64,000 nt of DNA from an uncultured Bacilli bacterium (GTDB lineage Bacteria > Bacillota_I > Bacilli_A > RF39 > UBA660): the NCBI GenBank assembly GCA_934120015.1, contig CAKOTD010000001.1:836-64835 (forward strand), in the 5' to 3' direction. The notes under the pieces were generated by a model. That model was given only the letters and a program-made list of their open reading frames with translations, made no database searches and was not told the DNA's origin. Below are positions 3,318 through 64,000 of the stretch, piece by piece (position 1 is the stretch's first letter; each line of letters opens with the position of its first letter). The position numbers and the translations under genes were made by a program.

Positions 3318-3318
3318 A

Positions 3319-8956: not shown

Positions 8957-8957
8957 A

Positions 8958-16853: not shown

Positions 16854-16877
16854 AATATTCATAGGAGGTTTTGATTT

Positions 16878-17318: not shown

Positions 17319-17388
17319 AGACTATTTAAGGTTAAAAAGTTAATTTCAATTAACTTTTTTTAATAATTAAATGTATTTATACCATACT

Positions 17389-17851: not shown

Positions 17852-17866
17852 AAATTCAACAATATA

Positions 17867-17895
17867 ATTATATATTTTTTAATATTTTTTTTCAA
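17867..17895 (-). promoter_or_regulatory. Sigma-A type promoter for tRNA-Thr(CGT)
   Basis: On the minus strand, TTGAAA, a 17-nt spacer, then TATAAT. The -10 ends 15 nt before the tRNA 5' end. Confidence 0.6.
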
Positions 17896-17929
17896 TATTA
17901 AATTTTTTAATATTTTTTATAAAAAGTTA

Positions 17930-17958
17930 TTGACAAATTATGGTTTTTAGATTAGTAT
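17930..17958 (+). promoter_or_regulatory. Sigma-A type promoter facing away from the tRNA
   Basis: TTGACA (17930-35), a 17-nt spacer, then TAGTAT (17953-58). Confidence 0.55.
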
Positions 17959-17964
17959 AGTAAC

Positions 17965-18065
17965 TACCAATTCGGAATTAGGCGAATTGGTGCTAGTATC
18001 ACACTAGCCAACCCCTTTTTATTCTTTTATGGAACTGTTCTCAGGGGGACAGTTCTATTTTTTTT
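17965..18065 (+). ncRNA. Candidate small RNA of about 100 nt with two hairpins and an intrinsic terminator; class unknown
   Basis: Hairpin CCAATTCG(gaattagg)CGAATTGG, hairpin GCTAGT(atcac)ACTAGC, single-stranded CCCCTTTTTATTCTT, and terminator GAACTGT(tctcaggggg)ACAGTTC followed by TATTTTTTTT. There is no ORF and no plus-strand gene downstream. Confidence 0.35.
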
Positions 18066-18094
18066 GAAAAAAAAAAGAATGCTTAAGCATTCTC
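18066..18094 (-). terminator. Intrinsic terminator of the PFOR transcript
   Basis: The minus strand reads AGAATGCTTAAGCATTCT followed by T10. Confidence 0.75.
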
Positions 18095-18228
18095 TGGCCG
18101 AATTGATGCTTCCCACAGCATCCCTTTTTATTCTTAAGGAGGCATATCTGCTACCTTAAGAATATTATATTATAGTTTATTAAATAATTTCAACTAAATA
18201 ATTTTTTATAATGTAAATGTTTGTAAAG

Positions 18229-21624: not shown

Positions 21625-21648
21625 AATATCACCTCTTTTATTATAACA

Positions 21649-21674
21649 AATAACAAGACTTATGTCTTGTTATT
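21649..21674 (-). terminator. Hairpin AATAACAAGAC(ttat)GTCTTGTTATT between the ytxH-like gene and PFOR
   Basis: 11-bp stem read directly. It overlaps the ytxH-like stop and is followed by TTGTT on the minus strand. Confidence 0.5.
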
Positions 21675-22089
21675 TTTCACTTCCTTTTTCCAATCTTTTT
21701 AAAACTTCTTTTGTTACTACTATTGTTTTCTCACGAATTGCAGCTGCAGTTTTTTCTAAAACAGGAGTTCCTTTTTCAACCGCATAATTAAATAAATCTT
21801 CTGCTTTATCCCTCAACATTCCTGCTTTTTCTTTTGCAATTTTTAAAACTTTTTCTCTATCTAAATCTTCAAGTTCAGTTTTTATTTCATCAACTTTTTC
21901 TTCAATATTTTCTTTGACTTCTTGCATATCTAAATTTTTTGCTTTGTTAATCATTTCATCTAATTTGTTCTTTAATTCTTTTCTTGTTTCACTACCCTTT
22001 TTAGGTGCAAACAAAACTCCTAAAGTAGCACCAACTAATGCTCCAAGGACAAATTTTCCTTTAGAATTTTTTTTCTTATCTTTACTCAT
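21670..22089 (-). CDS. ytxH: YtxH-like general stress protein
   Basis: N-terminal TM helix followed by APKKGSETRKELKNKLDE, and a helical Lys/Glu-rich remainder. The start was moved to MSKDKKK at 22089 because the AAAGGAG RBS spacing fits that codon. Confidence 0.7.
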   Translation of the reverse strand: MSKDKKKNSKGKFVLGALVGATLGVLFAPKKGSETRKELKNKLDEMINKAKNLDMQEVKENIEEKVDEIKTELEDLDREKVLKIAKEKAGMLRDKAEDLFNYAVEKGTPVLEKTAAAIREKTIVVTKEVLKRLEKGSEK

Positions 22090-22384
22090 AATCATCTTCT
22101 CCTTTTTTATCTTTCTTACTTTTTCTTTTTTTAAATAAACTAGTAATACTATTTGTTACAAAGTTTACTATCTTATCACTACATGATGAAACAAAATCTG
22201 CTGCTGTATCTAAAAGTGAAACAGCTTTATCTAATTTTTCAATATTATTATTAACACTATCTATGGTTTTATTAATTCTTTTTACTGTAGATAATAATTT
22301 AATTAATAGTATTATTAGTACTACTACTAATATAATCAAAACAGCATATAATATGATAGGTAAAAGTGAATGTAAAAACTCCAT
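22082..22384 (-). CDS. DUF948-like (YtxG-type) membrane-anchored protein
   Basis: 100 aa with one N-terminal TM helix and a helical tail. It lies directly upstream of the ytxH-like gene, as in the Bacillus ytxGH arrangement. Confidence 0.55.
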   Translation of the reverse strand: MEFLHSLLPIILYAVLIILVVVLIILLIKLLSTVKRINKTIDSVNNNIEKLDKAVSLLDTAADFVSSCSDKIVNFVTNSITSLFKKRKSKKDKKGEDDYE

Positions 22385-23412
22385 TATTTTTCCTCCTTAT
22401 CGTACATTGAATCAATCAAATTAAATAGATCACTGTCATTTAAATCACTTGAATCATTATAGGCATTTTCTATTTCGGTACTTGAAACATTTATAGGAAG
22501 CTCAATATCTTCATCTTTCATTTCCTCATCCAAACCAATTGTACCAACTGTTTCTTCATCATTTAAATTATCATTAATAGAAACATTTTCTATTTCGTCC
22601 TCTAACGAAGAACTCTTTATATCATCTTTTTCATTTTTTACATTTCCTGTTTCATGTTTCTTAAACTCAAAAGCAGATTTAAATTCATCGTCTTTCAGTA
22701 ATGATTCAATATCAGATTTTAATCCATCTTTGGTTAAATCTCTCTTTTTGTCTTCCTCAATAGCATTGGCAAAGTCAAGTTCATTGAAAATTTCATTATC
22801 ATCCTCAAGCTTTCCATGTTTTGGAGTATTATCAAAGTTTTCATTAGATAAAAGTGTATTTTCCAAGTCATCTTCTAAAGTGCCAAAAGCTTTATTTCTA
22901 ACATCATCAATTGTGATAGGCTTATTTGATTCTTTATAAGAAGTTCTAGTAGTTGTTGTAACAACGATGTCTTCTTTATAATAATTTTTATCTAAAATAC
23001 CATATACTGGAGAAATAATTGGCGTAGGTTTGAAGACCTTTTTTTCTCTCGTTTCGATATTTTTCTTATTATTATATGCTTCTTTATAACTTTCCCTGTG
23101 ACCACCATTATCCTCATTTTTCTTTATAGGTTGCATTTCTTTTTTTGGCTGTACAACATTTTTCTTTTCTGTTTCCCTTTTTATTTCTTCAAAATCTTTA
23201 TCATCAAAATACACAGGAAAAACAAATTTTTCATCTTTTTTTGCTGGTTGTACAGGTTTTTCTTCTTCTTTTAACACCGGTGCCACAGGAGTAGACTTTG
23301 TTATATCAGGTTGCTCACTTCTCTTAATAGAAGTGAATTCTTTTTTTTCAGGAATTACTTCTTCCTCAACTTCTTCAACGAAGATATTTTTAAATTTTTG
23401 CAATAGTCCCAT
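22384..23412 (-). CDS. Acidic low-complexity protein with an N-terminal amphipathic helix and a K.FK.T..ISPVYG motif
   Basis: MGLLQKFKNIFVEE start, very Glu/Asp/Lys rich, and the motif KKVFKPTPIISPVYGILD. Start and stop overlap the neighbouring genes (TAATG junctions). Confidence 0.65.
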   Translation of the reverse strand: MGLLQKFKNIFVEEVEEEVIPEKKEFTSIKRSEQPDITKSTPVAPVLKEEEKPVQPAKKDEKFVFPVYFDDKDFEEIKRETEKKNVVQPKKEMQPIKKNEDNGGHRESYKEAYNNKKNIETREKKVFKPTPIISPVYGILDKNYYKEDIVVTTTTRTSYKESNKPITIDDVRNKAFGTLEDDLENTLLSNENFDNTPKHGKLEDDNEIFNELDFANAIEEDKKRDLTKDGLKSDIESLLKDDEFKSAFEFKKHETGNVKNEKDDIKSSSLEDEIENVSINDNLNDEETVGTIGLDEEMKDEDIELPINVSSTEIENAYNDSSDLNDSDLFNLIDSMYDKEEK

Positions 23413-42769: not shown

Positions 42770-43413
42770 ATATCAATTAATTTAGATACAGACTCAATGA
42801 ACTTACCATTATATTTTTTACTAATCATATATCCATCATAATACTCAATCATCTGAACATCATTAATATCATTACCTATTGTATATATTTGATAGCCTTT
42901 TAAATATTTTTCTAAATATTTAATTGCACTTAGTTTAGTAATTTTCTTATAAGATATATTTAACCAATTTTCACTTAAATATGAATTAATGCTTTCAAAG
43001 TGAGAATTAAGCTCCTCACTAATTTTCTTTTCTAAGTTTCTATCTTCACATTTCAAAAGTATTCTACTAACTAATTTTTGATCATTGCAAATAGATACAT
43101 TATTATCATATTTTAATTCCTTAATATTATAAATCTCTAAAAATTTGAGCACATCTACTTTTAAATTACGAGGCATATAACTAGAATATATACAATCATT
43201 GTTATTATTATATATGCATGCACCATCACTACAAATTAAAAAGTCAAATGGTATATTATAAGATTTCATCATTTTCAAAATACTTTCATATGTTCTACCA
43301 GTTGCTACTACAAAAATATTATTTTCTTTACAGAACTCCCTAATCTTTTCTATATTTTTTTCAAAATTACTATCATATAGTGTTCCATCAAAATCGGATA
43401 TTAAACATTTCAT
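42760..43413 (-). CDS. HAD-IIB (Cof-type) phosphatase
   Basis: Motif I LISDFDGTL, VATGR, and a C-terminal GNDINDVQM. Confidence 0.8.
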   Translation of the reverse strand: MKCLISDFDGTLYDSNFEKNIEKIREFCKENNIFVVATGRTYESILKMMKSYNIPFDFLICSDGACIYNNNNDCIYSSYMPRNLKVDVLKFLEIYNIKELKYDNNVSICNDQKLVSRILLKCEDRNLEKKISEELNSHFESINSYLSENWLNISYKKITKLSAIKYLEKYLKGYQIYTIGNDINDVQMIEYYDGYMISKKYNGKFIESVSKLIDIIK

Positions 43414-44042
43414 TCAGTTACAATAATTGTTCTATAAAGAGTTATTAATCTATCATTTTCTCTATTTGTTAAATTATAGCTTACTATATAATTACCAGCA
43501 ATTGATGTATCAATGCCTCCATTTTCTATTTCTAATATGTAGGAATTTGCATCATCTGAATTCATAAACTCAAGGCCCTCTTCAATATAACTATCTCCAA
43601 TTTCTATATATTCTAACACATCACCTATCAAATTAACTTTAGGATATGATATGTCATTACTTTTTAATTCTTCATCCAGATTAGAAAAATCAATTGTATA
43701 AATATATTTTTCACCATCTTTACTTATATTAATTTTTGAGGCACAAGGAAATAATTTATCAGTTTTAGGATTTGTAATATCTTTTTCTACATATGAATCT
43801 ATTTTTAATTGACATAATGATAGAGTTAATACTTCACCACTATTTTTAGGTAAATATCTTGGATTATCAGCAACCCAACTTTTTGCTGCATCTATTATGT
43901 TCTTTACCTGAGAATCATATAAATCATTTTTTGCATCTTTAATTGTTTTTTCAATTGTAGGAAAAATCAGTAAGCCAACTAAACCTAAAACAACTAAAAC
44001 TGCAAGTAACTCTGTAAGAGTAAATCCTCTATTTTTCTTCAC
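43410..44042 (-). CDS. Type IV pilin-like protein with a C-terminal Ig-like (DUF5011-type) domain
   Basis: Prepilin motif KKNRG/FTLTELLAVLVVLGLV (Gly-Phe cleavage site, Glu at +5). The C-terminus NLIGDVLEYIEIGDSYIEEGLEF...IDTSIAGNYIVSYNLTN...RTIIV fits the DUF5011 pattern. The start is set to the GTG at 44042 after an AGGGTGG RBS, because the track extension lacks an RBS. Confidence 0.75.
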   Translation of the reverse strand: MKKNRGFTLTELLAVLVVLGLVGLLIFPTIEKTIKDAKNDLYDSQVKNIIDAAKSWVADNPRYLPKNSGEVLTLSLCQLKIDSYVEKDITNPKTDKLFPCASKINISKDGEKYIYTIDFSNLDEELKSNDISYPKVNLIGDVLEYIEIGDSYIEEGLEFMNSDDANSYILEIENGGIDTSIAGNYIVSYNLTNRENDRLITLYRTIIVTE

Positions 44043-44090
44043 ATATACCACCCTACAATAAGTATACAGCAAAAATGATTTTAAGTAAAT

Positions 44091-52842: not shown

Positions 52843-54489
52843 TCAAACCTCTTGCATAACAATTAAAATCATTGGATTACATTCAGTCTGCTGATATAAG
52901 TATTTACCTAATTTATCTCTGATACCAGCTTTAATTTTGTTGAATTCAATATAATTATCTTTTGTATTTTCTTTTATAACCTCTAAAGATATCTTTTCAG
53001 ATTCTTTAATTAAATCAACATTGTCTTTAACATAAATAAATCCCCTTGTAAGAATTTCAGGACCTGCTAGTACTTTTTTAGTTTGTTTATCAATACTAGC
53101 ACTTACAATTACTATTCCATTGTCACTAAGCATTTCACGATCTTTAATAACAAGTTCACCAACATCTCCAGATGTTTTACCATCAATTAAGATGTCATCA
53201 ACTTTCACTTTTTCACCAGTTTCCACTAAATTTCCATTTTCAAAGTTAACAACTTGACCATTTAATTTTAGTAAAATATTCTCTTCTGGAATACCTAGTG
53301 CCTTAGCAGCATTTGCATTTGCAACTTGATGACGATATTCACCAATTACTGGAAAATAATATTTTGGATTCATTAAGTTAATCATTAACATTAAATCTTC
53401 ACTTGAAGCATGATAGCCTAAATATTTTTTAGAAGCAATAATTACTAGATTAGCTCCAATTTGAGCAATTTTATCATATACTTTAGTGGCACTAAGTTCC
53501 ATACCATCATATACAGGTGAAGCAAATACAACTGTATCTTCAGGTGTTATTTTTACAAATTTGTCATAACCTTTTATAATTCTTGTAATATTTGAGAATG
53601 GTTTTTCCCTTTCATCAGAAACAACAATAACCGAATTATTATCACTTATATTTTTTAAACTACCAATTTTGTTTTTATCAAATTTTACATAATGCATATC
53701 AATTGCTTTTAAAATAATATTTTCAATTCTTTTTCCTAAAATTACAACTTTTCTATCAGTAGTAACAAGTTCATTGAACAATTCTTGTATACGACACAAT
53801 TGAGCTTGTGAAACATTGTAGATAATTCTACCTTCATACTTATTTAGTGTTTCTCTTAAAATAGAAGAAGTTCTGTGATTTGGTGAAGTAAATCCTTTCT
53901 TATCTGCATATAAAGATTCACTTAATAGGCAAAGAACACCTTGTTTTCCAACATATGCAAGTTTACCAATATCTGTCTTATAATTTCCTATCATTTTAGG
54001 ATCAAACATAAAATTTCCCGTATAAAAAATTGCCCCATCTTCTGTATACAAAACGTATCCTACTGCATCTGGAACTGAATGCGTTAAACTTATAGGGAAA
54101 ATACTATTTTTACCAAAACTGATTTTTTTGTGTGGAACAATATTAATTAAATTATTACTATTAATGTTATCAAAAGCAAGTTCTTCTTTGATAACTTCGA
54201 TGGTAAATGTTGTCCCATAAATTTTTATTTCTGGAATATCTTTTATAATATCTGGAACTGAACCCATTTGTTGATCATGCCCATGTGTTATAAATATTCC
54301 CTTTATTCTTTTTTTATTTTCCTTTAAGTAATCATAATTTGGCATAATATAATCTACACCAAGTAGTTTATCATCAGGATATTTTAATCCTGCATCAAAT
54401 ACAAATATATCATTGTCCACTTCAATAACATACATATTTTTTCCGATTTCGTTTAATCCACCAAGACTAAACATTTTTATTTTGCTCAT
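52843..54489 (-). CDS. rnj: Ribonuclease J homologue with degenerate catalytic motifs
   Basis: Full-length RNase J architecture is present: MBL, beta-CASP and C-terminal domains, from LGGLNEIGKNMYV to PMILIVMQEV. However the motifs read HGHDQQ (canonical HGHEDH), TGNFMFD (TGDFKFD), HASSED (HTSGH) and PVIGEY (P.HGEY). Confidence 0.85.
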   Translation of the reverse strand: MSKIKMFSLGGLNEIGKNMYVIEVDNDIFVFDAGLKYPDDKLLGVDYIMPNYDYLKENKKRIKGIFITHGHDQQMGSVPDIIKDIPEIKIYGTTFTIEVIKEELAFDNINSNNLINIVPHKKISFGKNSIFPISLTHSVPDAVGYVLYTEDGAIFYTGNFMFDPKMIGNYKTDIGKLAYVGKQGVLCLLSESLYADKKGFTSPNHRTSSILRETLNKYEGRIIYNVSQAQLCRIQELFNELVTTDRKVVILGKRIENIILKAIDMHYVKFDKNKIGSLKNISDNNSVIVVSDEREKPFSNITRIIKGYDKFVKITPEDTVVFASPVYDGMELSATKVYDKIAQIGANLVIIASKKYLGYHASSEDLMLMINLMNPKYYFPVIGEYRHQVANANAAKALGIPEENILLKLNGQVVNFENGNLVETGEKVKVDDILIDGKTSGDVGELVIKDREMLSDNGIVIVSASIDKQTKKVLAGPEILTRGFIYVKDNVDLIKESEKISLEVIKENTKDNYIEFNKIKAGIRDKLGKYLYQQTECNPMILIVMQEV

Positions 54490-54765
54490 ATTTACTCCTT
54501 TCTCTTTTTTTAAAGACTAGTTAATTATATCAAAAAAAACAAATTTAGTCTAGTATTCTTACATAATAAAAGTTTATAGCATCCTATAAACTTTTATCCA
54601 TTTATTTAAATATTTGTGAATATTGTAGTTATAAAGATATTATTTGTAATTTGAGGAGTATATTACAAATATATTATTTTTTCTATCTCATTTATCACCT
54701 CCACTATAAAAAGTATATAACTTAATTGTGGAAGTAATTTGATAATAAAATGGGAAAATATGTAA

Positions 54766-56190
54766 TTATACAAAAATAGCTACTATAATAATTACAAGAA
54801 TTGTTACTATAAATATTTCAAGTAATAATTTCCAAATATATTTAAACCATTCCTTAAACGATATCTTTAAATAAGATAATCCCATTACTAACATCATACT
54901 TGTTGGAATTATCAACATCATAATTCCGTGCATAGTTTGAACAATGAAACCAATTAATTGATATTTAGTTGTATCAGTGATTATATTTTCAGTTACACCA
55001 GATAAAATAGTTGCTAGACTATATAAATCTGGATAAAAAATAGCACCTATTAAGCTTACTAAAGGCATAAAAATTATTTTAGCACCATCAAAGAGAGTTA
55101 ATATAAAATTAGTAATAGTAAAGTAGATATTTTCACTCATCTGTAATCTATATAATGTAACAAATACTATATTTGCAAGTATTACATAAAAGGCAGGAAG
55201 TAACATTTGTTTAGCACCACTTACGTAACCTTCAAGAAAATCATCAAACTTAACACTATATAACCAACCTATACAAATTGTCATTAAAATGATTAAAATG
55301 GATACATCATATTGATTCCAAGCACCAAACTCATTTATAGAGCTTAATATATTAGCCATAATAGGATAATTTCCAATTTTTATTGCCATAAGATTATTAT
55401 ATAATTCAGAGAATATATTTATTTCAAATAATCCCCTCCAATTAATTGTACTAATTAATAGTATTAACATAAAAATAGTAAAAGTTACAATTAATGGTAA
55501 GATACTTTTTTTGGACTTAACATTTTCATATAATGGTATAAGTTCATCATTAGATTCTTTCTTATTCTTCTTATCTTTTTTATTAATACTTATATTATGC
55601 ATAACAAAACTTACAAATATAAATACAACAATTATAAAGAAAATTATCTTTGTAATTATCTCATCGTTAAGACTCAAATGAAATTTATCATTAATATAAT
55701 AACTTGTGCTACTACCATAAATAGCACATATATTACCAATTAAAATAGAACCAAATGTACTAACGAGTGCAACTATTTTACTAAATCCAAGTTCTAAAAT
55801 AACTGTTATTAAGAATGGAGCAATAATTAAAAATAGAGATTGAACTCCAATAAGTGCTGATAAGGTTGTTAATATTACCATTAAAGCTATTATAAATTTC
55901 TTTTCTTTACCATTTAGCTTATTTTTAATCTTTTCAACTAGATTGGCATATACTAAAGTTTTATTTAGTACCCCATAAAATCCACCTATTATTAATACTA
56001 ATAATCCATATTGAATCAAATTGGAAAAGGTTATAATAGGAACCCTGATAATATCAAATATTCCAACTGGTGATGTACCATTAGTAATAAAAGTCCCATT
56101 TTCATATCCACCAACCGGTATTAACCAAGTAAGCAGTAAAACAAATAAAAACATAAAACCAATTATTTTAAATAAATTATACTTTTTCAT
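54766..56190 (-). CDS. YfcC/DcuC-type polytopic transporter
   Basis: 474 aa with about 12 TM helices. The N-terminus FVLLLTWLIPVGGYENG resembles the YfcC family start. Confidence 0.55.
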   Translation of the reverse strand: MKKYNLFKIIGFMFLFVLLLTWLIPVGGYENGTFITNGTSPVGIFDIIRVPIITFSNLIQYGLLVLIIGGFYGVLNKTLVYANLVEKIKNKLNGKEKKFIIALMVILTTLSALIGVQSLFLIIAPFLITVILELGFSKIVALVSTFGSILIGNICAIYGSSTSYYINDKFHLSLNDEIITKIIFFIIVVFIFVSFVMHNISINKKDKKNKKESNDELIPLYENVKSKKSILPLIVTFTIFMLILLISTINWRGLFEINIFSELYNNLMAIKIGNYPIMANILSSINEFGAWNQYDVSILIILMTICIGWLYSVKFDDFLEGYVSGAKQMLLPAFYVILANIVFVTLYRLQMSENIYFTITNFILTLFDGAKIIFMPLVSLIGAIFYPDLYSLATILSGVTENIITDTTKYQLIGFIVQTMHGIMMLIIPTSMMLVMGLSYLKISFKEWFKYIWKLLLEIFIVTILVIIIVAIFV

Positions 56191-56242
56191 ATATCCCTCC
56201 TAGTTACATTATAATAAAAACAAAACAAATATACAACAAAAA

Positions 56243-58045
56243 TTACTCATTATTTTTATTAACAAGATAATAACACATACTAATTATTATAGGAATTTGA
56301 AATACAATACCTATTGCATATCTAAAATATGTATTTACAGGTGATGCAAAACAAACTAATATAAGAGAAATTGTTGGTGCTAACCAAATTAGATATTTAT
56401 ACTTTTTTATTTTTAAAACAATAAATACTACAAATAGGACAATCCAATTACAAAAAGCTATATTTACAATATACCCTAGTAAAGGAATATATTGGAATCC
56501 AACCCCATAACAACTAAGTATATTTCTAAGACCATTAAGATTATTATAGTGATAATTGATTCCATCATTAATTAGTCTTTCATCATATTTATAGTATATA
56601 TACCAAGAATGATTTGGATAAAAATAACCATATGTATTGTGCAATGTTGCTTCAATATAAACATTAGGATGTTTCACTAATCCTTTAAACCATACTTTAA
56701 AATAATCTTTTAAATCATCATTACTTGCATATTTATTAAAAGCATTTTTTACAGGATCAGCCTTTAAAGGATTATATCTACTTGCAAGATCATCAATCCC
56801 AAGCACCTTATCAATAACACCTTTATCATAATCACTCAATTCATTTTCATGATATTTTACATACCTAGCAGTTTGTTGAAATGGTATTGAAAGTACTTCC
56901 CTAATGCTACCCGGTGTTATTTTTAATGCAGGTAATAAAATATGAGCATATGATAAATAAATTGTAAGAGTTATAAGAGTTACAAATAAGCAATTCTTTC
57001 TAATTTTTTTCATAAAAACTATCATAAATGGCATTGCAAATAAAATTGCGTATATTCCATTATTTCTAAGCATTGTAACCAATAACATAATTATAACAAG
57101 TATAAATCCATTTTTAAAATTCAAATTTTCATCCTTGATTATATCAAATATTTTAATACAAAATAGAATAACGAAACAATTAAACATAACATCTTTTACA
57201 ACTGACATAGCATAAAAAGGAAAAACAGGAACTAAAGAATATATAATTAAACTTATTACTCTAATTATCGAAGGAGTATTAATTTTTTTCATATAATAAA
57301 TTGTATAACTAAGAGTTCCTACTAATGTGCAAATTTGAATGATACTATACATAAATATACCAACATTTACACTTCCAATTATATCTCCAACTTTAGCAAG
57401 TCCACCTAACAATACTGTATGAAGAACAGGATGATGATTAGTAATATAGACATTTGGATCAAGCAAAATAGAATAATCTAAATACTTAGTTTTTATATGA
57501 AAAAATTGTTTTATTTGATTACTTGGATCAGGAGATAAAATACCTGGATAAAAAGATATTATATATGGTAAATAACAAATAATAATTATAATAAAAGGTA
57601 ATATAAATGGATGTTTTTCAAAAATAAATTTATATACTTTATTACTATAACTTTTAAACTTATACTTATTAATAAATTCAAAAATAGTGTTAGTACTAAA
57701 CAAGAATAAATAATAAAAACCAATTAACTTTATTAAACTAATAAACAATAGTAATATGTTATGTACAATTATAGTAAAATTACCATTAACTTTAAAACTA
57801 TAACCAACAATCATAAATAATGCTAGTATAAGTGATAAAATTTTAAATGATTTCTTACTTTTGAAAATATTTTTTTGATAACAAAAGTATAAAATTATAA
57901 CTGAAATAAACAACGCAAAAAAATTAATAGAAATATTATAATTCTTATTAATCTTTAAACATAAAGATAGTGAACTAAACACCGATAATATTACACAAAG
58001 TATATTATTCATAAACATCTTATTTTTTTCTTTCATAAAGCTCAT
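56243..58045 (-). CDS. Large polytopic membrane protein, DUF6020-like (putative GT-C-type transferase)
   Basis: About 15 TM helices and a loop with ITNHHPVLHTVLLGG. The preferred start is the ATG at 58045 after a GAGGGA RBS. The track starts at a TTG at 58060. Confidence 0.6.
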   Translation of the reverse strand: MSFMKEKNKMFMNNILCVILSVFSSLSLCLKINKNYNISINFFALFISVIILYFCYQKNIFKSKKSFKILSLILALFMIVGYSFKVNGNFTIIVHNILLLFISLIKLIGFYYLFLFSTNTIFEFINKYKFKSYSNKVYKFIFEKHPFILPFIIIIICYLPYIISFYPGILSPDPSNQIKQFFHIKTKYLDYSILLDPNVYITNHHPVLHTVLLGGLAKVGDIIGSVNVGIFMYSIIQICTLVGTLSYTIYYMKKINTPSIIRVISLIIYSLVPVFPFYAMSVVKDVMFNCFVILFCIKIFDIIKDENLNFKNGFILVIIMLLVTMLRNNGIYAILFAMPFMIVFMKKIRKNCLFVTLITLTIYLSYAHILLPALKITPGSIREVLSIPFQQTARYVKYHENELSDYDKGVIDKVLGIDDLASRYNPLKADPVKNAFNKYASNDDLKDYFKVWFKGLVKHPNVYIEATLHNTYGYFYPNHSWYIYYKYDERLINDGINYHYNNLNGLRNILSCYGVGFQYIPLLGYIVNIAFCNWIVLFVVFIVLKIKKYKYLIWLAPTISLILVCFASPVNTYFRYAIGIVFQIPIIISMCYYLVNKNNE

Positions 58046-59489
58046 AAACAAATCCCTCAAATTCTTCTTTACTAATTAATCTATATTTTTTTAACCTTTT
58101 TTTAAAGTCTTTCTCATTCTTTTTTCTTCTTGTTACAACAAAATCAACTTTTCCATTTTTGATAACATCATCTTGAGAAGTACAATTATCACTGAATACC
58201 TTGCAAGCAATATTTTGTCTCATAAAGAATTTTGTCGTTGGAAGAATATCTGCAGCAAAATAAAATCCACCATCTAAAAAACGATAATTTAATAGAGTAG
58301 CATTATCTTTTTTATTAATTATGCTAGCAAATTTATACTGGACTAAATCTTCTTTTTTATATTTACTAAAATAATAATTAGGACTTTTAAATAAAGCAGC
58401 AATACTTAAAGTTATGGTAATTAATAAGACAATTAAATATATTTTTTTATTAATATACTTATCAATTAACATATAAATGGTTATTAACCCCAAAATACTA
58501 TATATAACTACATCTAAGTAATAATAAATATAATTTTTACCACCTATATATATTCCAAGAAGTAAAGCAAAGAAAGACAATATAATAGGAAGACGTTTCA
58601 AAAATAAGTTATTTTTGCAAGCTAGAAAACTCATTCCTACAATAATCAGAAACAATATATAGATATTATTTATCATTGATTTATAACAAATAAATACCAT
58701 ATAAAGTACTTTATAAATAATTGATTGTTTTTTAGCATATAAAAATATATTTGCAATAAAATAATTGTCAATAAAATCCAGTAATGCATTATTTAAAATA
58801 AAATATATCATAACTAATAATACAGGTATAGAAAAACCTAATAATAAATAAAAAACACAAAATAAAAATTCTCTATAATTTTTACTAACTAACTTTTTAA
58901 TCAAAATAGTCAAAACAAAAACTATCCAAAAACCAAGTAATGTATATTTAATTAGAGAAACTACTCCAATAATAATTCCTGTTACAAATAATGTTTTATT
59001 ATCAATAATATTCTTATCAATATATCTTATGAAATGATAAAATGAAATACATAGCAAAGGAAAAATAAATTCTTCTGCACTACCACCCAATGCAAAATAA
59101 TTTGACGTTAAAAAGAGGGTTGAAAATACTGGAATTATAACAAAAATATATTTCTTATTTAGAAAAATATTAATAGTTTTAGCAAGAAAATATAAGGAAA
59201 TTGTAAAAGAAATTATTTCTAAGAAATATACCCCAATAAAACTCTTATGTGATATTAGTGCACCAATTGTATAAATAAAATAAAGTATTGGTCCTTTCTG
59301 CTCAAATAAATCTCGGTATGGAACAAGCCCATTTAATATCCCCTTTGCAACAGTAAAAAATGCATTGGCATCAACCCACTTATTCATTGGATATAGAAAT
59401 GAACACTCAGAACAGATTGTAATTCCCATAAAAGAAATAAATAAACAAAATACTAATATAAAATACTTATTTTTAACAATTTTACTCAT
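58020..59489 (-). CDS. GT-C fold glycosyltransferase (ArnT/PMT, GT39/83-like)
   Basis: Multi-TM protein. The first extracytoplasmic loop WVDANAFFTVAKGILNGLVPYRDLFEQKGPILYF is typical of ArnT/PMT_2-type enzymes. The start was moved to MSKIVKNKYF at 59489. Confidence 0.65.
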   Translation of the reverse strand: MSKIVKNKYFILVFCLFISFMGITICSECSFLYPMNKWVDANAFFTVAKGILNGLVPYRDLFEQKGPILYFIYTIGALISHKSFIGVYFLEIISFTISLYFLAKTINIFLNKKYIFVIIPVFSTLFLTSNYFALGGSAEEFIFPLLCISFYHFIRYIDKNIIDNKTLFVTGIIIGVVSLIKYTLLGFWIVFVLTILIKKLVSKNYREFLFCVFYLLLGFSIPVLLVMIYFILNNALLDFIDNYFIANIFLYAKKQSIIYKVLYMVFICYKSMINNIYILFLIIVGMSFLACKNNLFLKRLPIILSFFALLLGIYIGGKNYIYYYLDVVIYSILGLITIYMLIDKYINKKIYLIVLLITITLSIAALFKSPNYYFSKYKKEDLVQYKFASIINKKDNATLLNYRFLDGGFYFAADILPTTKFFMRQNIACKVFSDNCTSQDDVIKNGKVDFVVTRRKKNEKDFKKRLKKYRLISKEEFEGFVYELYERKK

Positions 59490-59590
59490 ATAAAACTCCC
59501 ATAAACTATTTAAATTATATACCAAACAAACAAAATAGTAAACAAAAAGAGATAATATTATCTCTTATGAATAATCTAAATTTCTAACAC

Positions 59591-60058
59591 TTATTTAATA
59601 ATCTCATAAGTAATACTGGTTACATTACTTAAATCACTATCAAAATCTACATATAAAGTTTTTGTTGCTTTAGACTTTATTGTTCCAGAAACAGGAGCAA
59701 CTGCAAATCCTCCATCACCTAATACATTATTCCCATCTTTATCCTTTAAAATAACTTTAAAATAATCTATCGTTATATCTTCATCAGTATTATTAGTAGC
59801 TTCTATAGTAATTTTAGAACTATATGCAGTGCTTGTTAAATTTGTATTACTCAATGTAATTCCATCTACTATCTGTTCCTTTACCACTTCACTATTTTCA
59901 TTTTTTTCCTCTTTTAAGGTACCATCATCATTAATCTCTTCTTTTATTTTATTATCTTCAGGAGTGGGATTTTCATCTTTCTTATTTTTCTTTCCACATC
60001 CTGTCATTAGCATAAAACCAATCATTATAACTAAACTTGTACTTATTATCTTTTTCAT
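59591..60058 (-). CDS. Lipoprotein with an Ig-like (DUF4352-type) beta domain
   Basis: Lipobox LMTGC. The C-terminal half (ITIEATNNTDEDITIDYFKVILKDKDGN..TKTLYVDF) is beta-sandwich-like. A GGAGG RBS lies 30 nt after the giant gene stop. Confidence 0.65.
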   Translation of the reverse strand: MKKIISTSLVIMIGFMLMTGCGKKNKKDENPTPEDNKIKEEINDDGTLKEEKNENSEVVKEQIVDGITLSNTNLTSTAYSSKITIEATNNTDEDITIDYFKVILKDKDGNNVLGDGGFAVAPVSGTIKSKATKTLYVDFDSDLSNVTSITYEIIK

Positions 60059-60087
60059 AATGCCTCCATAATTTTAACAAACTGCTC

Positions 60088-63000
60088 CTAACAATTACCA
60101 TTACAACATGCATAACTATTTGCACAACTATTATAACAACTACTTGCACCACCAGTACTAGCACAATTAGCATTACATCGTGCAAAGGAATCAGCACAAC
60201 TGCTTCCACCACCACCACTACATGAACCTGTTGGAGAGGATCTAAATGTTCTTGATATCTCATTACCATCAACATCTCTACATACTGTATAAACACTACC
60301 AGATAATGAACCATTTGTACAAGTAACAGTATTTTCATCCTTACAGGTGATAGTCTTCATTGTAAATCCAAAAATTACATCATTACTTACCTTATTAGAA
60401 TTATTTGTACAATTTGCTGTAATAGATATTGGTATAGCATCAGTTATTGTACCACCATATTCAGAACAATCATATAAATTTGCTGATTCACAATAATCTT
60501 TACAACATGTTTTATATGTAGTTTCAGCTGTTGCAGTGCAATCACCCCTACCGCCTGAAGCTGATGAACAAGCATTACCTGCATTTTCAGCTCTTGCATC
60601 ACATTCACTTGGACAAGTAAATACTACATCTGAGGCCTGAATCGTAAAGGTATTGGTTGTTCCAGATTTAATTACACTTGTTCCTGCTTTAGCATTCCAT
60701 GAATATGATTTTACTCCAGATGATCCTGCACTACATCCTATTGTTATTGTATATGTTTCATCTTTAGCTACTATTGCACCATTTGTTACATTTGTTCCTG
60801 AACTTGTCTTTACAGTTATTGTTGCTGTTGGCGGTGCTGTATTTATTGTATATGTTTGATAATACCATCCCGAACCATTAACAGGGCTTTGATTTTGTAT
60901 ATTTCCTGCCTTATCATATACTTTTGCATATATTATCCATGAACCATCACTATCAAGTGGTACATCATAGTATGATGATGTTGTTGGATTTGCATTATTT
61001 GATATTGACTGAATTACTCCGTCTTTATATACATGTACATACATATATGAATAATTTGTGTCATTTGCTGTTACTCTTACGGTCTGTGCTGTATCATAAC
61101 TTCCTCCTGCTACACTATAACTTACTGTTGGCTTTGTTGTATCTACATCCCATACTGTTAGATGATTTCTACCTGCTGTTCCTATACTTATATTTCCTGC
61201 ATTATCTCTGGCAATTATATGTGGTATCCATCTTCCATCTTTTAACATTGGAATACTCCATTGATTATTCCCAATCGATACTGCATTATTTACCCATGTT
61301 CCATCTTTCCAAATAGATATTTGATTATTACTTGATAGACCACTTCCTCCTGTGTCTGTTAATGTTAGAGTTGGGGTTATTCCACTACTAAAGAAGCCCA
61401 TATAATATGATCCACCATACAAATCTGTTAATGATTGAGCATTATAATTATAGGATATTGTTGGAGCTATTTTATCTATTGAAATTATATGTGTTGGAGT
61501 TAGACCGCCAACATTTCCAGCTTTATCAACCGCTCTAAACCATATTCCTGTTCTAGTCGAATTTTCAATAGTAAAATTATTACCCGCAATATCAACAAAA
61601 GTTAATCCATTATATGTCATTTGATAATGGTCTACTCCACTTTCCGTGTCTGTAGATGATAAATATGCTGTTACTGATTGATTTGTCCACGTATCTGATT
61701 CATATATTTGCCCATCGGCAGTTTTATATACTACTGTTGTTAATGGCCCTGTTGTATCTATCATAGTTACATTCTTTGACGAACTTATTTCATTTATTCC
61801 ATCACTTACTTTTGCTTCTATATTTCCATTACTCTTTAATACTATTTTATCTGTTTTTCCACTTACTTCATACCATGTTCCATTTGTTATTATTGTTCCA
61901 TCTTCTTTTGTTGCTGTTCCATTTATTACTCTATATTTTTTTGTATAATTTCCGTCTGGATATGTTATTGTTACTATTTTACTTTGTGTCCATACTCCTG
62001 AATCTGTTACTGTAAAACTTGGTATCTTTATTTCTCCTGTTGTTCCTACTGTACTTGCTTCTGTACTATTTCCTGCTTCATCTGTACATTTTACTTTTAA
62101 GTTATATGTTCCTGTCTTCAAATTACTAAATGTATATATATTATTTGTTCCTGTTTTATAATTTAATCCATTATCACTACTATATTCATAACTTTTTATT
62201 CCTATGTTATCTGTGCATGTTGCTTTTACTTCTATCGAATTTGTTGTTGTATTTGTTATCTCTAATGTTGCTGTTGGTTTCTCTGTATCTATTTTATCTA
62301 TTATGAACATATATCCTTCTGATATATTCCCTACTAAATCTTTACTATATGCATAATATGTTCCATTACTATTTATTTCATATTTTCCTGTTTTTCCTGT
62401 TATACTTTCCCATGTACAATTTTCACTACTATTTTCGTTTGTTATACAATAATGGGTTACTCCTGATACTGCACTTCCATTTTCTTCTATATCATCTACT
62501 TCTATTGTTATTTCATCTTTTTTACTATATCCTTCATTTATATCTTTTACACTTATTATTGGTTTTGCATTATCTATATTTATTACTTTCTCTGTTTTAT
62601 CTACTACATTTGTTCCATCTGTTATTCTTCCTATTATAGTTGTATTATTTTCCGTTATTTTTATTATTCCTGTATATTCCCTAAATTCTCCATCATTTAG
62701 ACTATACATTATTTTAAATCCTTCTAACATTATTCCATCATAGCTTATTGTTGCTTCTTTTTCTTGTGCTAATCCTTTTGGCGTTACTTCTATTATTGGA
62801 GCCTTTAGTATTTCTGTTTTTACTTCTTTTATTTCTGATTCTATTGTTTCTATATTTTCTCTACAATTTTCTTTTTCTGTTAATCCATTATATACTCTTA
62901 CTTTTATTTGATATTTTGTATTGAACAACAAGTCTTTATATTCATATATATTATTTTGAGGATTTTCAGCTGTCTGCCATGTTATTCCTCCATCTTTACT

Positions 63001-63534
63001 ATATTCATATTTACTTATTCCACTTTCACTATCTTTGGCATTTACTACTATTTTTATTCTATTTAAAGTCACCGTATAACTAAAATCTACACTTTCTGGT
63101 GCAGTCATATCACATAGTACTCCTATATCATCACAATTTCCGCTCTTTACCTTTACTTTTGTATCATTATATGTCTTATATGCACACCATTTATTATTTG
63201 TATATCCTATTGCCTGGTTTCCTTCCCTATCTACATATGCATCTCCTACACCTGTTATTTCTCCTATATGCTTTGTACCTATTGGTTCTTCTTCAAAATA
63301 TATTTTTTGATCCTTTATTATATACATATCATTTTCTAATAATGATGTATATCCACTACTTGCCCTATCTAATTTTATTGTATTTAATATTCCTACTGCA
63401 CTTTGTCTAAATGCGGATTTTTCTGCTCTTCTTGTTATCCCATTTACTATTGGTACTGTTATTAATGCGATTATTGCTAGTACTACTATTACTGTTAATA
63501 ATTCTATTAATGTAAATCCTTTATTTTTATTCAT
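60088..63534 (-). CDS. Giant type IV pilin-like surface protein (1148 aa): prepilin N-terminus, multiple Ig/FN3-like modules and a Cys-rich C-terminal tail
   Basis: N-terminus MNKNKG/FTLIELLTVIVVLAIIALITVPIV (class III signal, Glu at +5). Repeated modules carry SG(I/V)xxYEYS and D.AGN motifs. The last 175 aa contain 21 Cys by my count. GAGGAG RBS. Confidence 0.85.
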   Translation of the reverse strand: MNKNKGFTLIELLTVIVVLAIIALITVPIVNGITRRAEKSAFRQSAVGILNTIKLDRASSGYTSLLENDMYIIKDQKIYFEEEPIGTKHIGEITGVGDAYVDREGNQAIGYTNNKWCAYKTYNDTKVKVKSGNCDDIGVLCDMTAPESVDFSYTVTLNRIKIVVNAKDSESGISKYEYSKDGGITWQTAENPQNNIYEYKDLLFNTKYQIKVRVYNGLTEKENCRENIETIESEIKEVKTEILKAPIIEVTPKGLAQEKEATISYDGIMLEGFKIMYSLNDGEFREYTGIIKITENNTTIIGRITDGTNVVDKTEKVINIDNAKPIISVKDINEGYSKKDEITIEVDDIEENGSAVSGVTHYCITNENSSENCTWESITGKTGKYEINSNGTYYAYSKDLVGNISEGYMFIIDKIDTEKPTATLEITNTTTNSIEVKATCTDNIGIKSYEYSSDNGLNYKTGTNNIYTFSNLKTGTYNLKVKCTDEAGNSTEASTVGTTGEIKIPSFTVTDSGVWTQSKIVTITYPDGNYTKKYRVINGTATKEDGTIITNGTWYEVSGKTDKIVLKSNGNIEAKVSDGINEISSSKNVTMIDTTGPLTTVVYKTADGQIYESDTWTNQSVTAYLSSTDTESGVDHYQMTYNGLTFVDIAGNNFTIENSTRTGIWFRAVDKAGNVGGLTPTHIISIDKIAPTISYNYNAQSLTDLYGGSYYMGFFSSGITPTLTLTDTGGSGLSSNNQISIWKDGTWVNNAVSIGNNQWSIPMLKDGRWIPHIIARDNAGNISIGTAGRNHLTVWDVDTTKPTVSYSVAGGSYDTAQTVRVTANDTNYSYMYVHVYKDGVIQSISNNANPTTSSYYDVPLDSDGSWIIYAKVYDKAGNIQNQSPVNGSGWYYQTYTINTAPPTATITVKTSSGTNVTNGAIVAKDETYTITIGCSAGSSGVKSYSWNAKAGTSVIKSGTTNTFTIQASDVVFTCPSECDARAENAGNACSSASGGRGDCTATAETTYKTCCKDYCESANLYDCSEYGGTITDAIPISITANCTNNSNKVSNDVIFGFTMKTITCKDENTVTCTNGSLSGSVYTVCRDVDGNEISRTFRSSPTGSCSGGGGSSCADSFARCNANCASTGGASSCYNSCANSYACCNGNC

Positions 63535-63565
63535 GAACTTACTCCTCTTCTATACTTATACCTAT

Positions 63566-63597
63566 AGTATACCCCCCCCCCCCTCGACAATTGTCAA
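63566..63597 (-). promoter_or_regulatory. Candidate promoter of the giant pilin-like gene with a G12 tract in the spacer
   Basis: The minus strand reads TTGACA (63597-63592), then attgtcga plus G12 (a 20-nt spacer), then TATACT (63571-63566), which ends 31 nt upstream of the ATG. Confidence 0.5.
63572..63583. repeat. Homopolymeric C12 (plus strand) / G12 (coding strand) tract
   Basis: Counted directly: nine C at 63572-63580 plus three C at 63581-63583. It is unique in this AT-rich window. Confidence 0.95.
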
Positions 63598-63619
63598 GGG
63601 GATGGTGGGGTATTTATCA

Positions 63620-63645
63620 AAAGAAAAGCAATCAATAATGATTGC
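63620..63645 (-). terminator. Terminator of the upstream 97-aa gene
   Basis: The minus strand reads GCAATCA(ttat)TGATTGC followed by TTTTCTTTT. Confidence 0.6.
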
Positions 63646-63650
63646 CTAAA

Positions 63651-63944
63651 TTACAAATTAAATTTTTTATTTTGATTTGAGATATGAATTCTTTTAGCTA
63701 AATCAATAAAATAAATTATGGATAAATTATCACTATCTAATGTATTGTTAATCATGATTTCCCACATTTTATCATTTCTAATATAGTCCAAACTTTCTAT
63801 ACCTTTAATATCAAGCCCAATGATTTTATTATTTAAATCTACTAGATGCTTTGTTCTATAATCATTTAGTTCTATCTGAATATAACCATTATCAGACAAA
63901 AAATTAAGTACATTTAAAATATCATCATTGCTATATTCCATCAA
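63651..63944 (-). CDS. Hypothetical protein, 97 aa
   Basis: ORF from the track with no recognisable motif. The upstream context is cut by the window edge. Confidence 0.45.
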   Translation of the reverse strand: MMEYSNDDILNVLNFLSDNGYIQIELNDYRTKHLVDLNNKIIGLDIKGIESLDYIRNDKMWEIMINNTLDSDNLSIIYFIDLAKRIHISNQNKKFNL

Positions 63945-64000
63945 TTTATTACATAAATCATCTACTAATAGATATCTATTATAAGGAATATTTTCACATT

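Follow-up and report, generated by a model that had tools for sequence, protein, structure and literature searches.

A giant pilin-like, putative adhesin gene with a poly-G promoter tract beside a GT-C/DUF6020 gene pair in an uncultured gut Bacilli genome

Four closely spaced genes on the minus strand of an uncultured Bacilli genome (positions 56243–63534 of a 64,000-nucleotide stretch of contig CAKOTD010000001.1, ~25% GC throughout and hereafter called the window) encode, in order of transcription, a giant protein of 1148 residues that begins like a type IV prepilin, a small lipoprotein, a glycosyltransferase of the GT-C type and a polytopic membrane protein of the DUF6020 family. This arrangement raises the question of whether the genes form one operon in which the two membrane enzymes glycosylate the giant pilin, as a sequence-only reading of the region had proposed, or whether they came to lie together in another way. 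Our analysis indicates that the region likely consists of two independent units that are adjacent through insertion rather than function: unit A, a probably phase-variable pilin-lipoprotein module, and unit B, a putative envelope glycosylation pair.

Evidence for two adjacent units at the pilin locus

The open reading frame list and domain searches confirmed the four same-strand genes and the domain families assigned to them from sequence. The GT-C and DUF6020 starts were fixed by gene callers together with exact-sequence look-ups: the former is an ATG at 59489 preceded by a GGGAG ribosome-binding site (RBS), an identical 489-aa product being present in public collections, and the latter lies at 58045 behind a GAGGG RBS, giving 600 aa. 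With these starts, the pilin and lipoprotein genes are 29 nt apart, the gap from the lipoprotein gene to the GT-C gene is 101 nt, and the GT-C gene overlaps the DUF6020 gene by 26 nt. The overlap had been recognized in the sequence-only reading, which put the first gap at 30 nt and, too low, the second at 65 nt. By simple hydropathy, the pilin and the lipoprotein each have one transmembrane (TM)-like segment, the GT-C protein ~11 and the DUF6020 protein ~13–15. The genes and the signals around them are as follows.

63626–63647, minus strand: strong intrinsic terminator that closes the DUF2513 gene upstream (stem of 9 bp, then a T-tract; −11.5 kcal/mol, z = −3.2), the 5′ boundary of the pilin transcription unit
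63572–63609, no strand assigned: imperfect palindrome in which a C-rich arm pairs with the G tract across the −35 hexamer (CCCCACCATCCCC-TTGACAATTGTCGA-G12; inverted repeat I1, 24-nt arms, 83% complementary)
63566–63597, minus strand: promoter of the pilin-lipoprotein module (−35 TTGACA at 63597–63592, −10 TATACT at 63571–63566)
63572–63583, minus strand: homopolymeric G12 (C12 on the plus strand), a candidate slipped-strand phase-variation switch
60088–63534, minus strand: gene for the 1148-aa giant modular type IV pilin-like adhesin
59591–60058, minus strand: gene for the 155-aa partner lipoprotein (GGAGG RBS)
59540–59566, minus strand: AT-rich hairpin and tail, a candidate intrinsic terminator for the pilin-lipoprotein unit (AAGAGATAAT/ATTATCTCTT, then TTTTGTTT)
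59514–59542, minus strand: promoter of the GT-C/DUF6020 unit, found by promoter scan (TTTACT-17 nt-TATAAT)
58020–59489, minus strand: gene for the 489-aa GT-C-type polytopic glycosyltransferase (PMT_2/PF27757 Ccs4_N)
56243–58045, minus strand: gene for the 600-aa DUF6020 polytopic membrane protein, which overlaps the GT-C stop

Unit A runs from 63597 to ~59540 and is self-contained, comprising a promoter, the giant pilin-like adhesin gene, the lipoprotein gene and a candidate terminator. Unit B spans 59542–56243 and consists of the GT-C and DUF6020 genes, which are translationally coupled and have a conserved promoter of their own. The boundary between the two lies in the lipoprotein-GT-C gap, where the sequence-only reading had seen no evident internal terminator. 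This gap holds a perfect 8–10-bp AT-rich hairpin (59547–59566) followed by the TTTTGTTT tail, together with the unit B promoter. In an intergenic alignment that joins the window with loci L002 and L003, from two more samples of its species, and with locus L117, from a related species, both hexamers of this promoter and their spacing are invariant, and the promoter is kept in L117 even though the gene upstream of it there is a DHHW gene. The hairpin, in contrast, occurs only where the pilin-lipoprotein module is present: it is found in L002 and, despite a 7-nt insertion, in L003, but not in L117.

The order of genes in L117 provides the best explanation of why the pilin gene stands next to the GT-C gene, namely that a two-gene module was inserted into an older envelope-modification cluster. 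The L117 cluster reads, with percent identity to the window species in parentheses, MBOAT (78%), DHHW (64%), a 48-nt gap, GT-C (53%), DUF6020 (65%), GT2 and GtrA, with DcuC (52%) further along, and it contains no pilin, lipoprotein or DUF2513 gene. In the window species, DUF2513, pilin and lipoprotein genes (~4.5 kb, with their own promoter and terminator) occupy the position between DHHW and GT-C. Judging from these gene orders, the pilin module was probably inserted into an older envelope glycosylation cluster, and the comparison suggests that the upstream MBOAT-DHHW pair is part of the same ancestral envelope-modification cluster. Same-strand adjacency and short gaps can therefore come from insertion of a mobile two-gene module and do not by themselves indicate an operon.

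The alternative is that all four genes form one operon and that the pilin, rich in Thr, Ser and Asn, is glycosylated extracytoplasmically by the GT-C and DUF6020 proteins, in the manner of TfpW or of O-mannosylation by PMT enzymes. TfpW/TfpX arabinosylates the group IV pilins of Pseudomonas aeruginosa, and PglL/PilO O-glycosylate pilins; the likeness to these systems is a polytopic GT-C-type enzyme encoded beside a pilin gene, for which TfpW sets the precedent. PMT_2-type GT-C enzymes can act on proteins, the stalk of the giant pilin is rich in potential acceptors (residues 141–1000 are ~31% Thr, Ser and Asn), and the genes share a strand and are closely spaced. The gap hairpin is also weak, which counts against a strict division into two units: its folding energy is −7.2 kcal/mol (centroid), its z-score of −0.33 against shuffled sequences is not significant, its stem has fewer than three G-C pairs, and a consensus terminator scanner overlooked it. 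Some read-through into the GT-C gene is therefore possible. Nevertheless, linkage in the TfpW and PglL systems is conserved with the pilin allele, whereas here it is limited to one species and is explained by insertion. The pilin-lipoprotein pair occurs elsewhere in seven distinct settings that lack GT-C and DUF6020 genes, neither pilin nor lipoprotein is present at any of 25 reference-genome DUF6020 loci, and the GT-C loci L117–L119 have no pilin. The orthologous cluster in L117 is contiguous without a pilin gene, the GT-C gene retains its own conserved promoter, and the usual partners of both membrane proteins are GT2, GtrA and polysaccharide genes. On this evidence the single glycosylating operon is quite improbable. 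As a functional unit it gave way because homologues of both membrane proteins are consistently tied to an unrelated pathway, an outcome named beforehand as speaking against it; for glycosylation of the pilin by its neighbors we found no support, linkage being conserved in neither direction.

The GT-C/DUF6020 pair

Having separated unit B from the pilin module, we considered what its two proteins may do. The GT-C protein scores 27.9 bits against PMT_2 (cut-off 26.1) and is also matched by PF27757 Ccs4_N. Its family comprises 693 homologues, some of them fused to GT2; three such proteins of 735–758 aa (P0145, P0192 and P0196) also carry Glycos_transf_2 and would combine the donor-making and transferring enzymes in one polypeptide. 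Residues invariant in the family are W38, D40 and N42 (W38-x-D40-x-N42, directly after TM1), D60, E63-Q-K-G66 and E139-E140. The protein is thus predicted to be polytopic with an invariant acidic residue in its first extracytoplasmic loop, as expected of GT-C enzymes that use polyprenyl-phosphate sugars (PMC8035078). The DUF6020 protein scores 214.8 bits against its family, and its sole link to GT-C families is a sub-threshold match to DUF2142 (E = 4.9e-4); D173 (in LSPDP), H204-H205 and K284-D285 are invariant, and an extracytoplasmic domain of ~150 aa is present. A literature search on DUF6020 found no paper. Among the GTDB reference genomes, the nearest DUF6020 relative is in UMGS1045 (62%), and no relative of the GT-C protein was found.

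Gene context points both proteins toward the envelope. At 13 of 20 reference loci, DUF6020 is followed by a same-strand Glycos_transf_2 gene (~310 aa, with C-terminal TM helices) and a GtrA gene of ~130 aa, and GT2 and GtrA also lie directly downstream of DUF6020 in L117 and L008. The GT-C gene of L118 and L119 forms part of a polysaccharide cluster, where its companions are GtrA, an STM0557-type GT-C, an acyltransferase, DUF2142, several GT2 genes and an ABC-2 exporter. Comparable to unit B are the multi-component transmembrane glycosylation systems of Gram-positive bacteria, such as GtlA/GtcA/GtlB of Listeria and CsbB/GtcA/YfhO and YkcBC of B. subtilis (PMC8035078), which share with unit B a PMT_2-type GT-C enzyme with an invariant first-loop Asp and, with its orthologous clusters, a membrane GT2 and a GtrA flippase. 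In Listeria, the PMT_2-type GtlB galactosylates lipoteichoic acid; the genes for the flippase and the GT-A enzyme may lie apart from that for the GT-C, and a GT-C enzyme of small size may depend on another protein to recognize its acceptor (PMC8035078). Unit B differs from these systems in having two coupled polytopic proteins, one of them the uncharacterized DUF6020 protein, and in lacking GT2 and GtrA at the locus itself.

From these likenesses in sequence and gene order we infer that unit B belongs to a polyprenyl-phosphate-sugar, multi-component envelope glycosylation system with teichoic acid or a wall polysaccharide as possible acceptor. Gene context further implies that the DUF6020 protein is a second polytopic component of such a system, which would give this family its first functional context as a part of GtrA/GT2-type envelope glycosylation clusters. 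The view of the two membrane proteins as lipid-linked-sugar-type transferases is supported by family and gene context. Three results pull the other way. Sequence and profile searches of the PDB returned no relative of either protein; DUF6020 shows no profile-level similarity to the PMT_2-type GT-C family (hhalign probability 1.4%); and GT2 and GtrA genes are absent from this locus and from the whole window, so that these partners of unit B must be encoded elsewhere in the genome.

A DUF4358-MBOAT-DHHW gene set, putatively for glycopolymer O-acylation, was seen near pilin-like genes in L001 (6497–9884, upstream of the window's end), L034 (20541–22289), L054 and L117 (2–2138); in L117 the set is contiguous with the GT-C and DUF6020 genes. 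Downstream of unit B (54766–56243), the DUF6020 gene has no terminator, and a DcuC/YfcC-type transporter gene, preceded by a TATAAT-like motif and an AGGAGG RBS, begins 52 nt away. This gene could be co-transcribed with unit B, and a DcuC gene is also nearby in L117.

The giant modular pilin and its partner lipoprotein

By the definition of Raynaud et al. 2021, the protein encoded by the first gene of unit A is a modular type IV pilin. The sequence-only reading of a giant protein with a type IV prepilin leader and a long Ig-like array held up: N_methyl (PF07963) scores 30.8 bits against a cut-off of 21.2 and TIGR02532 28.8 against 16.3, and domain searches place three OmpL47-type Ig-like domains and a Big_13 domain behind the pilin module. 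The leader MNKNKG precedes FTLIELLTVIVVLAIIALITVPIV, with Gly(−1), Phe(+1) and Glu(+5). These three residues are invariant across 17 close relatives, and G6, F7, T8, L9 and E11 are invariant in 19 members of the clade. The only TM-like segment is residues 12–30. AlphaFold2, run for the pilin on an alignment of 40 sequences, yielded models of both the pilin and the lipoprotein, and the features of the pilin gene, all within 60088–63534, are as follows.

63115–63534, minus strand: pilin module, ~aa 1–140 (leader MNKNKG followed by FTLIE; 52-residue alpha1 helix, aa 9–60; small beta-sheet, aa 68–131; Cys117/Cys134; linker)
61495–63093, minus strand: stalk, aa 148–680 (~six confident Ig/FN3-like beta-sandwich domains; AlphaFold2 predicted local distance difference test [pLDDT] 80–91; Foldseek)
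61480–61734, minus strand: swapped-cassette region, aa 601–685 (from windowed identity of alleles P0001, P0002 and P0003)
60826–61479, minus strand: low-confidence, poorly modelled region, aa 686–903 (pLDDT 26–48; gaps in allele P0003, an indel of ~four domains)
60091–60735, minus strand: Cys-rich, allele-variable C-terminal region, aa 934–1148 (22 Cys; Cys positions and windowed identity), presumably the distal end

A profile built from the first ~145 residues matches PilE1 of S. sanguinis (8pfb; E = 1e-12, positions 7–98), PilA (9laa; 2–117), Neisseria PilE (5kua; 7–113) and GspG (5wda). The conserved Cys117 and Cys134 lie just ahead of a TTPP-type linker and resemble the C-terminal disulfide loop of pilins. 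Foldseek matched the model best to fragments of the Aureispira 'grappling hook' protein GhpA and to Ig/FN3 arrays (E = 1e-13 to 1e-10). The protein thus combines an N_methyl motif, an alpha1 helix and a small beta-sheet with a Cys pair, and in it a pilin module is linked to OmpL47-type, Big_13 and Ig/FN3-like domains, the composition by which modular pilins are defined (PMC8179133). An RGD tripeptide at aa 996–998 (60541–60549), between two Cys of the variable C-terminal region, may be fortuitous.

The class of modular pilins counts over 1,200 proteins with 264 architectures, of which the largest example cited has 860 aa, and their display at the filament tip has been proposed (PMC8179133). 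Like PilB and PilC of S. sanguinis and CofB of enterotoxigenic Escherichia coli (PMC8179133; Shahin et al. 2023, PMC9934059), the window protein has a short linker that connects its class III signal peptide and small pilin module with non-pilin adhesion modules, and the widespread occurrence of the class and its proposed place at the tip apply equally. It differs in size, since its 1148 aa exceed 860 aa and its relatives reach 1,421–1,603 aa, and in being an orphan gene with a conserved lipoprotein partner and a homopolymeric promoter tract, of which the latter two fall outside the described paradigm. While modular pilins themselves are known, the lipoprotein partner, the poly-G promoter tract and the clade-wide gene repertoire described below go beyond the papers that we found. 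The statement that the locus matches no known pilus locus was nonetheless too strong: modular pilins have been described, and large pilins also occur inside type IV pilus operons, as in L097, where PilB, a 1140-aa pilin and PilD are encoded together, and in L058, where a 586-aa pilin lies inside a PilB/PilC/PilD operon.

Such machinery is not found around the window gene. Domain searches detected no PilB, PilC, PilD or PilM–O in the window, as had been noted for the immediate pilB, pilC and pilD neighborhood, and no PilB/PilC-type genes in the 10-kb flanks of nine homologous loci. The only PilM_2 match in the window is FtsA, below the cut-off. Peptidase_A24 is likewise absent from the window; PilD is encoded in L097 and in a related Bacillales metagenome-assembled genome (MAG), L048, which carries PilC, PilD, a 478-aa polytopic protein without a Pfam match and a 121-aa pilin in a row (6305–10400). 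The 478-aa protein might be an O-antigen-ligase-like pilin glycosylase. The lack of pilus-assembly and prepilin-peptidase genes in the window weighs against our account of unit A, in which processing and filament entry are predictions.

This lack also favors a second alternative, in which the two units hold but the giant protein never joins a filament: the prepilin N-terminus would be only a cleavable signal-anchor, the ~1000-residue Ig-like stalk would cross the wall by itself, the protein would be a free-standing, membrane-rooted adhesin, and the lipoprotein a factor that helps to hold or organize it. The gene and nearly all of its clade relatives stand as orphans between housekeeping genes, away from any pilus machinery, and the same leader precedes many unrelated modules (leucine-rich repeats [LRR], TSP1, ALK-GRD, lectin and DUF285). 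At least 22 such genes occur in one genome, more than a pilus tip would seem to require, and ~10 Ig domains would, from domain size, be long enough to span a Gram-positive wall. However, the family shows no variation in Glu(+5), in Phe(+1) or in the alpha1 helix as a whole, and pilins need Glu5 to pack subunits in filaments, not to be cleaved or inserted into the membrane. Both the globular pilin module and the Cys pair have been kept, large pilins lie inside type IV pilus operons in L097 and L058, and PilC and PilD are encoded in L048. We therefore hold the free-standing adhesin to be possible but doubtful.

Our preferred reading of unit A remains a filament-associated pilin. A prepilin peptidase encoded elsewhere would cleave the protein after Gly6, and the hydrophobic alpha1 helix with its invariant Glu5 would allow it to enter a filament of the type IV or Com type, with the tip, as proposed for modular pilins, as its most likely place. 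From there the Ig-like stalk would carry the variable Cys-rich head past the cell wall for adhesion. An adhesin role, first proposed from sequence, is a reasonable conclusion to draw from the protein's class III signal peptide, its pilin module and its Ig-like array.

The variability of the head is apparent from the alleles. The pilin has 142 detectable homologues, nearly all of them metagenomic, 600–1,900 aa long and mostly with N_methyl. Three of the corresponding loci (L001–L003) are syntenic samples of the same human gut species; a search of the GTDB reference genomes, from which this species is absent, found no relative of the pilin. Genes flanking the pilin gene are 95–100% identical between the samples, whereas the pilins are only 79–86% identical and mosaic. 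Two alleles share 98–100% identity over residues 1–600 and drop to ~25% over residues 601–685, a swapped cassette with 98–100% identity on both sides. The Cys-rich C-terminal region is variable, and the third allele, P0003, lacks residues ~686–900. The DNA repeats inside the pilin gene have diverged and are short; no long repeat accounts for the P0003 deletion. Neighboring proteins each form a single 90% cluster of 6–10 members, whereas the pilin alleles fall into separate clusters. This mosaic divergence is as expected, from the alignments, of an exposed surface protein under diversifying selection, and cassette swaps and indels in stalk and head would add antigenic variation to any switching of expression. 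A second case of length-variable alleles was seen at one locus in L121 (2294–6559) and L122 (1748–6559), with pilins of 1421 and 1603 aa.

The second gene of unit A encodes a lipoprotein with the lipobox L-M-T-G-C21, of which T19-G20-C21-G22 is invariant in 25 sequences. One N-terminal TM-like segment is followed by a linker with a conserved DGTLKE and by a C-terminal domain with a conserved KDKDG. AlphaFold2 models the domain as a 7-strand beta-sandwich on a disordered tether (pLDDT 83.7 overall and >90 for residues 40–155). No meaningful PDB match came from searches by sequence or profile, and Foldseek returned only generic beta-sandwiches (best E = 1.5e-3), the top ones being lipoproteins of unknown function (DUF1425; 4les of B. 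anthracis; YjhA [3cfu]). An identity as a PilP-type alignment lipoprotein found no support in these matches.

Whether pilin and lipoprotein belong together was assessed with a tblastn matrix, an iterated (jackhmmer) search and locus contexts. The lipoprotein family comprises 24 clusters, and the iterated search found it confined to the L001–L003-type, L004, L005/6 and L007 loci among ~90 pilin-containing loci. The lipoprotein lies directly downstream of the pilin gene in L007 (60%), directly upstream in L005/6 (30%) and ~9 kb downstream in L004 (59%), past a Mob_Pre/serine-recombinase island. That island (13731–22717; Mob_Pre relaxase, AAA ATPase, HTH regulators and a large serine recombinase) lies exactly between the two genes. 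In L120, a 1334-aa N_methyl protein is followed after 11 nt by the lipoprotein, and in L121/L122 an N_methyl protein of 1421 or 1603 aa is followed by two tandem lipoprotein paralogues. The pair thus occurs in at least six different chromosomal settings. L004, L005/6 and L007 (pilin identity 45–62%) have housekeeping neighbors and no GT-C, DUF6020 or pilus machinery; the same is true of the more distant L034 and L035 with their unrelated housekeeping neighbors, and L120 and L121/122 also lack GT-C and DUF6020. Across genomes in which the pilin is only 37–45% identical, the lipoprotein is 57–65% identical. By sequence and gene order, pilin and lipoprotein form a conserved two-gene module, with the lipoprotein as the conserved partner. 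The membrane-tethered lipoprotein probably acts on the pilin at the membrane as a holder, chaperone or docking factor, the least certain step of our model. It would then be a new accessory factor for the largest pilins of this kind, one that has no known counterpart.

Poly-G tracts upstream of prepilin-leader genes

The promoter of unit A has the layout TTGACA-ATTGTCGA-G12-TATACT, with a 20-nt spacer and a −10 hexamer that ends 32 nt upstream of the pilin ATG. In the 64 kb of the window, the G12 tract is the only G/C run of at least 7 nt. The tract is G12, G11 and G10 in L001, L002 and L003, giving spacers of 20, 19 and 18 nt, while the orthologous promoters of L004, L005 and L007, equally far from the ATG, consist of TTGCAA-17 nt-TATAAT/TATACT and lack a G tract. 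A homopolymer of at least ~9 nt thus separates the −35 and −10 hexamers and differs in length between samples. No known RNA was found by Rfam in 54000–64000, and the promoter region is therefore not a known riboswitch or leader.

This is the design of established switches. Poly-A tracts in promoter spacers switch the vlp genes of Mycoplasma hyorhinis, in which, as here, a run between −35 and −10 of a surface-protein gene sets the spacer length. Phase variation by promoter-spacer homopolymers works in the same way at the porA/opc-type loci of Neisseria meningitidis (PMC5084427). We conclude from this layout that the poly-G tract is probably a phase-variation switch of the giant pilin: slipped-strand mispairing would shift the spacer between ~17–18 nt, where the promoter would be on, and 19–20 nt, where it would be weak or off, resulting in stochastic expression.

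It is also conceivable that the tract is no switch but a neutral or structural promoter feature such as a palindromic operator, that its lengths reflect strain polymorphism or sequencing error, and that expression is constitutive or conventionally regulated. Two features of the data favor this view and weigh against the phase-variable reading of unit A: the length differences come from only three consensus assemblies of different, diverged strains, in a kind of sequence that is error-prone, and all three spacers (18–20 nt) exceed the optimum, so that no sample is in a clear 'on' state. In addition, the tract is embedded in the 24-nt imperfect palindrome across the −35 hexamer, and 47 loci of a second promoter type, described below, do not fit a simple spacer model. 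Conversely, G/C runs of at least 9 nt are otherwise absent from these ~25% GC genomes and, in these data, almost exclusive to the promoters of one class of surface genes, with tract lengths of 9–20 nt within and between genomes. At promoters of the window's type, the tract fits exactly into the space between two good hexamers, −35 and −10, and the spacer lengths straddle the functional range, the classical design of the Neisseria and Mycoplasma switches, and orthologous promoters without a tract have 17-nt spacers. A tract without switching is accordingly unlikely. The G-tract/C-rich palindrome could itself serve as an operator, form a cruciform or be a structure that promotes slippage. Directly before TTGACA, a C-run is also present in L131 and L163, both of the window's promoter type, and in L217.

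The confinement of such tracts to one gene class became evident from other loci. Low-GC loci totalling 1.29 Mb, retrieved independently of this question, contain nine G/C runs of at least 8 nt, and every one is on the coding strand and no more than 200 nt upstream of a prepilin motif; only 1.7% of this sequence qualifies, giving a binomial P of ~1e-16, or ~1e-11 if six independent loci are counted. We then scanned 185,579 reference genomes for G9 followed, after 40–70 nt, by K-G-F-T-L-I-E and obtained at least 119 loci, against an expectation of ~0.1 calculated by us for uniform composition. A scan of JGI metagenomes for further samples of the promoter gave only an unrelated high-GC chance match (L033). 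The listed loci come nearly all from MAGs of uncultured gut Bacilli or 'Tenericutes'. Among the matches listed, the genome MGYG-HGUT-02248 has at least 22 poly-G-prepilin loci and other genomes have 9–10. In all, poly-G tracts (G9–G20) were recorded upstream of prepilin-leader genes in the window (63572–63583), L038, L047, L049, L050, L054, L075 and L123–L241. Tracts in the listed loci measure 9–19 nt, with G20 in the truncated locus L217, and most end 34–43 nt before the ATG.

Two promoter layouts account for 47 listed loci each. In type A, to which the window belongs, the tract lies between a TTGACA-like −35 hexamer (perfect in 39) and the −10 hexamer, with spacers of 12–23 nt and modes at 16 and 19–20 nt. 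In type B, an inverted repeat GTTTGC-N5-GCAAAC is followed by G9–10, TATTTT...CCTCTTCTTTTTT and the RBS, an order that the spacer model does not explain; examples are L123, L126, L128, L133, L148, L150 and L151. Here, in the manner of a terminator or attenuator, the G-run could pair with a CCTC that precedes the T-run.

Runs of G9 or longer precede a prepilin motif in 123 of 134 cases in the listed loci. Four of the other 11 concern truncated loci, with the motif present but cut by the locus end in L134, L153 and L233 and the locus cut too early in L217; five precede genes with hydrophobic, signal-anchor-like N-termini, and those in L191 and L234 have no obvious target. Sequencing error is possible for any single length, but it cannot explain why, in independent studies, the tracts keep to one class of genes. 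All 10 downstream proteins that were sampled pass N_methyl; their modules are lectin, Ig-like, DUF285, DUF6273 or unrecognized. Other prepilin-leader genes carry BspA-type LRR (L094), TSP1 repeats or an ALK/LTK glycine-rich domain. Tandem arrays were also seen, with five pilin-leader paralogues of ~685 aa and BspA-type LRR in L094 (3433–14194) and three pilin-leader genes of ~750–795 aa (Ig-like or Laminin_G_3) in L034 (10001–17066).

Taken together, these loci may represent a clade-wide system in which uncultured low-GC gut Bacilli maintain large repertoires of prepilin-leader adhesins (Ig, LRR, TSP1, lectin, DUF285 and unknown folds), each gene behind a hypermutable poly-G promoter; we consider the chances of this about even. 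By analogy, such a system would amount to combinatorial on/off surface variation, the type-IV-pilin counterpart of the Vlp strategy of Mycoplasma and the phasome strategy of Neisseria, with which it shares the presence of many such genes per genome. It differs from them in its host lineage, in acting on pilin-leader genes and in the type B layout, and switching here is a prediction. Literature searches for poly-G or pilin phase variation in this lineage returned precedents from Neisseria, Bifidobacterium and C. difficile only. Of these, the sortase-dependent pili of Bifidobacterium breve (PMC9187656) offer the case of a gut commensal with a pilus/adhesin locus switched by a G tract; there, however, the tract lies in the coding region of a sortase-pilus cluster, whereas here it is in the promoter of type IV pilin-like genes. 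Type IV pilin biology has so far rested on a few cultured pathogens. If the clade-wide interpretation is correct, an abundant uncultured lineage of the human and animal gut uses the pilin scaffold for adhesins of 300 to >1,600 residues, and large-scale stochastic surface variation occurs in commensals, with a bearing on colonization, evasion of immunity (immunoglobulin A) and phage resistance.

Other parts of the window add minor observations. A second, small orphan modular pilin of 211 aa (43410–44045, minus strand; N_methyl and Bact_surface_Ig-like) lies between genes for a RecD2 helicase and a HAD hydrolase and has no poly-G tract; the genome therefore carries several pilin-leader genes. 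The second giant open reading frame of the window (18229–21624), considered as a possible pilin paralogue, is pyruvate:ferredoxin oxidoreductase. At 2628–4119, a sigma factor gene lies next to SpoIIGA (Peptidase_U4), indicating that this organism has sporulation genes, and its relatives carry SpoVA, YabP and YqfD (L005 and L120).

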